Below are positions 17,280-18,067 of a stretch of 64,000 bases of DNA, piece after piece (position 1 is the stretch's first letter; each line of letters opens with the position of its first letter). The position numbers were made by a program, and so were the translations under genes. Below the pieces are notes generated by a model. It searched no databases. It was not told the origin of the DNA and saw only the letters and a program-made list of their open reading frames with translations. Origin of the DNA: Escherichia phage vB_EcoM_CE1; sequence record ON229909.1, one strand, 5' to 3'.

Positions 17280-17864
17280 ATGATTAAATTGGTATTCGCT
17301 TATTCTCCAACTAAAACTGTCGAAGGCTTTAATGAATTAGCATTCGGTTTAGGTGATGGTTTACCATGGGGACGAGTTAAAAAAGACCTCCAGAATTTTA
17401 AAGCTCGTACTGAAGGCACAATTATGATTATGGGTGCTAAAACGTTCCAGTCATTGCCTACATTACTTCCAGGTCGTAGTCATGTGGTGGTATGTGATAT
17501 TAAACGCGGTTATCCTGAAACTAAAGATGGTGATTTGGCTCATTTTTATATTACCTGGGATGAGTATGTTACCTTAGTAGCTGGTGGACGTATCCAATTA
17601 TCCAGTCCTAATACAAATTTTGAAACGTTTATCGATTCCAGCGAAAATCGCATCAGTGTAATTGGCGGACCCGCTCTGTTATATGCTGCATTACCTTATG
17701 CGGATGAAGTAGTTGTTTCTCGCATCGTTAAAAGGCATCGTGTTAATTCAACGGTTCAATTAGATGCAAGTTTTCTTGATGATATAAGCAAGCGTGAAAT
17801 GGTTGAAAGTCATTGGTATAAAATAGATGAAGTAACAACCCTTACGGAATCAGTATATAAATGA
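17280..17864 (+). CDS. frd: dihydrofolate reductase
   Basis: 194 aa, [46 protein letters not shown]... matches T4 DHFR. Confidence 0.95.
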
Positions 17865-18067
17865 GCAATAAATTAAAAGTTAAGGATGTTCCTAATGCTA
17901 TGGCTCTTTTTATTTGTCGGCAGATGCATCAAGGGCCTATGACACCAAAACAATATCTTAAAGGTGAGCGTTCTTTAGGATTTACTCGCAAAGCAAAACA
18001 AATGGTTAAATTAGGATATAAGCCTAACTTTGCCAAATATCCTTCTACATATTCTTGGATGAACTAA
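17861..18067 (+). CDS. small basic protein, inserted between frd and td
   Basis: 68-aa ORF; ATG overlaps frd stop (ATGA) and its TAA overlaps td ATG (TAATG); in T4 frd and td overlap directly. Confidence 0.5.

Follow-up and report, generated by a model that had tools for sequence, protein, structure and literature searches.

Organization of the frd-td junction

The window analysed here, a stretch of 64,000 nt from Escherichia phage vB_EcoM_CE1 (ON229909.1), was found 100% identical to the Tequatrovirus Escherichia phage vB_vPM_PD112, and the window phage is called PD112 hereafter. A small ORF of 68 codons lies between the dihydrofolate reductase gene frd and the thymidylate synthase gene td, and the following features were located at the junction:

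17280-17864, plus strand: frd (dihydrofolate reductase), 194 aa, whose TGA stop (17862-17864) overlaps the ATG of the 68-aa ORF
17860-17864, plus strand: left copy of an AATGA direct repeat, containing the ATGA (17861-17864) in which the frd stop and the ORF start overlap
17861-18067, plus strand: 68-aa ORF of the PHROG 9550 family (YP_010072904.1), encoding a basic protein with a predicted three-helix fold
18057-18062, plus strand: GGATGA, a putative Shine-Dalgarno-like element for td read from the sequence, 7 nt upstream of the td ATG
18066-18070, plus strand: right copy of the AATGA direct repeat, forming TAATG together with T18065
18067-18615, plus strand: td exon 1, 183 codons
18616-18877, plus strand: td group I intron of 262 nt without a homing-endonuclease ORF (RF00028, 73.8 bits; bounds by in-silico splicing)
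18878-19189, plus strand: td exon 2, 103 codons and the stop

The ORF runs from its ATG at 17861-17863 to its TAA stop at 18065-18067, and the latter overlaps the td ATG (18067-18069) within a TAATG at 18065-18069. These coordinates bear out the earlier note, which had described an frd-terminal ATGA opening a 68-codon ORF whose TAA is shared with the td start, with both overlaps intact. The source record already lists the ORF as a hypothetical protein under the accession given above.

As the same note had also held, the frd stop directly overlaps the td start by 4 nt (ATGA) in phage T4 (NC_000866), an arrangement that was reportedly first described by Purohit and Mathews in 1984. The window shares with T4 the two flanking genes and the frd 3′-end (TATAAATGA, closing in AAATGA), with 87% amino acid identity between the two Frd proteins, and the ORF starts in exactly the sequence context that T4 uses for the td start. 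The two genomes differ in that the window holds 206 nt for a third protein and two overlaps (ATGA and TAATG) in place of one; in a three-way alignment this appeared as a clean 206-nt indel with AATGA at both ends.

Splicing td in silico yielded a product of 286 aa, in agreement with the intronless td of a metagenomic contig (L021). The 262-nt intron carries no I-TevI ORF, while the T4 td intron is ∼1017 nt long, and in the RefSeq record the td exons stand as two ‘thymidylate synthase’ CDSs that are not joined into one gene.

A conserved family of small basic phage proteins

By tblastn, the 68-aa ORF was matched in 237 phage records, and its amino acid identity was 81% to the homologue in Klebsiella phage Marfa, 69% to that in Enterobacter phage CIP9 and 62% to that in Serratia phage 4S. 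Nei-Gojobori estimates of dN/dS against these three homologues were 0.13-0.19, each pair showing 21-27 synonymous differences; purifying selection acts on the protein. Its residues 1-68 also matched the PHROG 9550 profile over positions 1-68 of 68 (E = 1.3e-45). The 68-aa ORF is thus almost certainly a real protein-coding gene, and the claim of a small gene at this place is sustained by the 237 records, the dN/dS and the full-length profile match as more than a chance reading frame.

The family appears closed and confined to phages. Of 1.84 billion representative proteins searched exhaustively with a profile, 11 were matched, one of them spuriously, which left ∼10 genuine representatives (clustered at 50% identity). 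Profile searches of 5.8 billion proteins, run twice, settled on ∼40 clusters at 90% identity, all from phage contigs; a search for related loci with closer alignment gave 8 loci, mostly of known isolates. The lone long match (P0025) was judged spurious, being a repetitive protein in which only residues 9-29 were matched. All PHROG 9550 clusters came from virulent phages, and no member of the family occurred in 5,426 complete E. coli genomes or in PLSDB plasmids. Its members are 66-108 aa long, save two truncated annotations of 42 aa and one weak match of 58 aa, and among the ∼40 clusters neither a domain fusion nor a Pfam domain was found.

Annotation of the ORF is uneven: it is called hypothetical in well over a hundred records, and left unannotated in JS10 and JS98, while at least two records, those of PYPS2T and vB_EcoM_P8, mislabel it as ‘flagellar biosynthesis protein’. 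In the Tequatrovirus-like IMG/VR contig L021 (positions 893-1100), in which td is intronless, a +1 frameshift in an A-run shortens the ORF to 33 aa; it consists of an extra A plus a C-to-A change that lengthens the run, and represents either real decay or a homopolymer sequencing error.

The encoded protein has a mass of 7.9 kDa and a pI of 10.26, and with 10 Lys and 3 Arg against 1 Asp and 1 Glu it was rightly described as lysine-rich and basic. In all 27 aligned PHROG 9550 members the net charge is +7 to +17 and the pI 9.75-10.6. Conserved among them are an N-terminal tail of the form M-[SK]-[NG]-x-K-x-K-V...P, R20, K34, F41, M48 and an L-G-Y-x-P motif. An AlphaFold2 model built on the 27-sequence alignment (pLDDT 85.5), which superseded one from a shallow alignment (pLDDT 64.7), predicts helices at residues 13-24, 29-39 and 43-50, against which the aromatic C-terminal segment packs. 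Within the family, the variant P0009 is 73 aa long and has 5 residues inserted after G25, and three distant members, among the P0009, P0028, P0040 and P0042 variants, share a C-terminal extension with the motif G-x-G-D-R-x-(I/V)-N-L-P-L-K-P-Y, possibly a further module.

Searches for characterized relatives returned nothing. Pfam (the ORF and 27 family members), NCBIfam and PADLOC (0 hits) were all empty, as was a sequence-profile search of the PDB with the ORF; Foldseek detected no relative of the predicted fold in the PDB, and only the family itself in BFVD. Neither a helix-turn-helix nor any other known nucleic-acid-binding fold was significantly matched by sequence or structure. A homing endonuclease or its remnant (I-TevI, Seg or Mob type) was considered and rejected, as no GIY-YIG, HNH or associated DNA-binding Pfam family occurred in the 27 members, and nothing credible was found in Rfam over the ORF. 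The literature consulted, including a 2010 review of T4-like genomes and two papers on screens of phage accessory genes with their supplements, held no characterization of the ORF or the locus. The product was therefore correctly called uncharacterized, and PHROG 9550 itself is listed as a family of unknown function.

Alleles of the frd-td junction

With the T4 junction as query in distant mode, a spread sample of 30 Tequatrovirus-level records was compared, and three length classes were distinguished: a span of 500 nt (empty junction) in two records, of ∼706 nt (68-aa ORF) in seven and of ∼917 nt in 21, corresponding to rough Tequatrovirus shares of 5-10%, ∼20% and 65-70%, respectively. The ∼917-nt allele, as in ECML-134, encodes a 115-aa protein of PHROG 1928, again a family of unknown function, which was found at ≥90% identity in 363 records by tblastn, including T2, RB3, RB14, RB18 and RB51, where it is annotated RB32ORF229c. 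T4's empty junction is thus a minority allele within its own genus, and the premise that the T4 ATGA overlap is the ground state is not supported by 2/30 empty junctions versus 7/30 with the ORF and 21/30 with the 115-aa gene. Presence and absence of the ORF was observed among closely related or near-identical genomes and between conserved core genes, as in the T4-PD112 indel and the three length classes.

Across the T4-like phages, the junction takes the following forms between frd and td:

Empty, with the ATGA overlap: T4; Mosigvirus WFK
PHROG 1928 gene: most Tequatrovirus (T2, RB3, RB14, ECML-134)
PHROG 9550 gene: PD112-like Tequatrovirus; every Dhakavirus listed
PHROG 1928 gene, then PHROG 9550 gene: Marfa; Serratia 4S
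two PHROG 1928 genes, then PHROG 9550 gene: CIP9 and two metagenomic contigs

The frd-td junction is therefore a multi-allelic site, at which two small cassettes (PHROG 9550 and PHROG 1928) occur singly, together or not at all. The PHROG 1928 gene resembles the 68-aa ORF in being small, uncharacterized, widespread in Straboviridae and polymorphic for presence and absence, and it is inserted at the identical nucleotide, after AAATGA and before ATGAAACAATA, with a AAATGAAA repeat at its bounds. It differs in encoding an unrelated protein of ∼115 aa, and its Tequatrovirus copies have spacers of their own (20 nt and 45 nt) instead of overlaps. The two genes are mutually exclusive in Tequatrovirus and stand in tandem in Marfa, CIP9 and 4S.

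Several further arrangements were noted. The PHROG 1928 gene, located at positions 875-1222 of the ECML-134 locus (L012), is tandemly duplicated in CIP9-like phages and mislabelled as dihydrofolate reductase in some records. The T4-like contig L022 (positions 1065-1852), a relative of the Erwinia phages Cronus, IT22 and FBB1, has its PHROG 9550 member immediately before frd and overlapping that gene, with PHROG 1928-like genes downstream of frd.

Lateral exchange of the cassette

A comparison of PD112 with Dhakavirus JS10 displayed a sharp difference between the ORF and its flanks: the ORF had 97.1% nucleotide identity (dS 0.14), versus 77.4% for frd (dS 1.1) and 78.0% for td exon 1 (dS ∼2.9). 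At the informative sites, PD112 agrees with T4 at all of 17678-17858, then resembles JS10 across the ORF and at 18082-18102, and returns to agreement with T4 from 18111. These sharp mosaic boundaries delimit one further feature:

17859-18110, plus strand: Dhakavirus-like recombination patch of ∼250 nt, comprising the ORF and the first ∼40 nt of td

The 68-aa ORF was carried by every Dhakavirus listed, and by these sequence comparisons the PD112 lineage and Dhakavirus have recently exchanged the cassette. A patch 97% identical to Dhakavirus inside a backbone of 77-78% argues that the cassette spreads by homologous recombination, which would occur between co-infecting T4-like phages and be anchored in the conserved 3′-end of frd and 5′-end of td. 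We thus regard the 68-aa ORF as very probably a laterally mobile accessory cassette at this multi-allelic site. Elsewhere in frd, identity to T4 and to JS10 alike drops to ∼60-72% over a central segment (∼17480-17680), against 93-100% identity to T4 over the remainder of the gene; this segment reads as a second, independent mosaic patch.

Whether the alleles arose by gain or by loss is a separate matter, and a history dominated by loss is tenable, though we hold it somewhat doubtful. It supposes that a T4-like ancestor carried frd, the PHROG 1928 gene, the PHROG 9550 gene and td in tandem, and that the present alleles were produced by differential precise deletions between short stop/start repeats. 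The order of PHROG 1928 before PHROG 9550 indeed recurs in several distant genera, and AATGA or AAATGAAA is duplicated at the bounds of both cassettes, as would suit deletion by microhomology; such repeats are nonetheless uninformative on the direction of change, since duplication of the motif necessarily follows whenever a cassette sits at an overlapping stop/start. The flanks of T4 are nearest to those of the PHROG 1928 allele (97.1% identity in frd and 96.0% in td, with the first 40 nt of td identical), and T4 may be a derivative of that allele by precise deletion between the AAATGAAA repeats. Yet the junction is empty in exactly the same way in Mosigvirus, with frd at just 62% identity, so the empty state may be old as well, and the similarity of the ORF between Dhakavirus and PD112, far above that of the flanks, calls for recent lateral exchange whatever the ancestry.

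The comparison with other T-even junctions that the earlier note had proposed showed the ORF arrangement to be recurrent and its product uncharacterized. The description of a gene ‘slotted in’ carries a T4-centred framing that is not upheld; for the PD112 lineage, with its mosaic shared with Dhakavirus, ‘inserted’ may still hold.

Expression signals at the two overlaps

The ORF was found in front of td in 13 T4-like loci, drawn from Tequatrovirus, Dhakavirus, Marfavirus, Kanagawavirus, Serratia 4S and metagenomic contigs, and in every one of them its stop overlaps the td start (TAATG, GTGA or ATGA). Neither a promoter-like nor a terminator-like site was found within the cassette, which has no spacer either. 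The ORF would be co-transcribed with frd and td and translated by termination-reinitiation or from weak local Shine-Dalgarno elements. Local mRNA structure at both junctions was not significant (z-scores 0.3-0.8), hence any coupling would work by termination-reinitiation and not by unmasking of a hidden start.

In front of td, the GGATGA element sits in the conserved Trp66-Met67 codons and extends into the first base of the Asn68 codon, and TGGATG is conserved in PD112, JS10, Marfa, CIP9 and 4S; this element could permit independent initiation at td. Of the assertion that the small gene left a coupled pair unbroken, the part on the overlaps holds, both being intact and the td-side one constant in the 13 loci, while translational coupling across frd, ORF and td is putative, being read from those overlaps.

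In the ECML-134 locus, the 45-nt spacer before td (L012, 1223-1267) contains a TATAAT-like stretch (GTATTATAATTTATATAAGG), and a promoter for td may come with the PHROG 1928 cassette itself, in contrast to the allele with the 68-aa ORF.

Relatives outside the junction

Homologues were also found in phages outside the T4-like group. The gp235 protein of phAPEC8 (YP_007348396.1) and its counterparts in other Phapecoctavirus are 43-49% identical to the 68-aa protein and share its motifs and basic character. gp235 differs in having 77 aa with an internal insertion, and in its place in the genome: it lies in a left-end early block of small hypothetical genes with host-type promoters, without a td or frd neighbour. 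Unlike the window ORF, it has an AAGGAG ribosome-binding site of its own and also that of its downstream neighbour. In metagenomic phages, members likewise lie among small early genes in blocks, and adjoin genes for Tad2-like, PrlF-antitoxin-like, NinX(-like), PIF1-helicase and RNA-ligase proteins. In these phAPEC8-like and metagenomic phages outside the T4-like group, neither td or frd nor any conserved partner gene was found beside PHROG 9550 members.

Possible function of the 68-aa protein

Our best guess is that the 68-aa ORF encodes an accessory protein that acts early and is dispensable. The ORF is missing from T4, T2 and Mosigvirus, from which it would be dispensable for dTMP synthesis; these absences, together with the one frameshifted copy, may indirectly suggest as much for phage growth. 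A three-helix protein of pI ∼10 with a conserved Lys-rich N-terminal tail would bind nucleic acid or an acidic host protein, and judging from its charge, size and genomic context we tentatively propose a polyanionic target. Binding to nucleic acid in particular, as the earlier note had suggested, is a reasonable guess that is compatible with the conserved positive charge and has no homology behind it. With low confidence, the protein would act early, in host takeover or counter-defence, and not in thymidylate metabolism. Taken as a whole, the reading of a genuine PHROG 9550 accessory gene, carried as a swappable junction cassette and encoding an early polyanion-binding protein, is in our judgement the probable one.

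Accessory genes located between core genes of enterobacterial phages are typically non-essential and often act in counter-defence (Silas et al., bioRxiv 10.1101/2023.04.06.535777). The 68-aa ORF is likewise small, fast-moving, horizontally exchanged and placed at a variable hotspot flanked by core genes; it differs from the genes of that study in being found neither in its text nor in its supplements. A search for an anti-defence identity was negative, with no PADLOC hit, BFVD matches to the family only and the ORF absent from the Silas et al. gene sets. Against the reading as a whole, no nucleic-acid-binding or anti-defence protein was found to resemble the 68-aa protein in sequence or fold, and within Straboviridae its gene is always joined to the td start or, in one lineage, to frd. 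If the gene were purely a random accessory one, such constant linkage could be explained through inherited synteny only.

That linkage is the main attraction of the chief functional alternative, a tie to the thymidylate cycle, in which the protein would be a small partner or regulator of thymidylate synthase or dihydrofolate reductase, e.g. a factor of the dNTP-synthetase complex or a translational regulator of the td/frd mRNA. The gene directly precedes and overlaps the td start in 13 of 13 loci, in every T4-like lineage sampled; in the Erwinia-Cronus-like lineage it directly precedes and overlaps frd; and its link to td is tighter than that to frd, as PHROG 1928 genes intervene on the frd side. 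However, the gene is missing from most T4-likes in which frd and td are active, neither td nor frd adjoins its homologues in Phapecoctavirus and other phages, and family members share no conserved partner gene. Moreover, no residue pattern in td tracks the ORF, the substitutions D6F and F12L being limited to the co-transferred patch. We consider this tie unlikely, given that the majority of phages with the two enzymes do without the gene and that its distant homologues are unlinked to them.

No better prospects are given to a bolder version, by which PHROG 9550 proteins would be small basic effectors that form a new class of fold and serve a specific role, as a td/frd partner or regulator, which would account for the constant linkage in Straboviridae, or in a novel kind of counter-defence, and the overlap would be a reusable docking site; if true, cassettes would be swapped between T4-like genera without disturbing the expression of the essential flanking genes.

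A non-functional ORF, be it a chance frame in an AT-rich spacer, an RNA element, or what a mobile element or homing endonuclease left behind in decaying, is scarcely credible: for all its shortness, its want of a Pfam domain, the missing annotation in JS10 and JS98, the one frameshifted metagenomic copy and the mobile intron in the adjoining td, it is effectively refuted by the dN/dS, with strong purifying selection over at least four genera and many synonymous changes. Full-length conservation down to 29-45% identity in unrelated phages and the confident predicted fold also speak against it, no family member has an endonuclease domain and the ORF has neither an Rfam family nor a stable RNA structure.

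Implications for T4-like phages

The current understanding of genome plasticity in T4-like phages is not overturned by these results, the 68-aa ORF being an ordinary accessory gene of a familiar kind. Its protein family is closed and restricted to phages, the fold is an orphan and the positive charge is high throughout, which makes it a reasonable, not an urgent, candidate for screens of host takeover or counter-defence. The textbook frd/td ATGA overlap of T4 turns out to be a rare allele in its own genus, which corrects a T4-centred assumption, and the junction provides a well-delimited case in which T4-like phages swap small accessory genes at one nucleotide-precise site with both stop/start overlaps kept.
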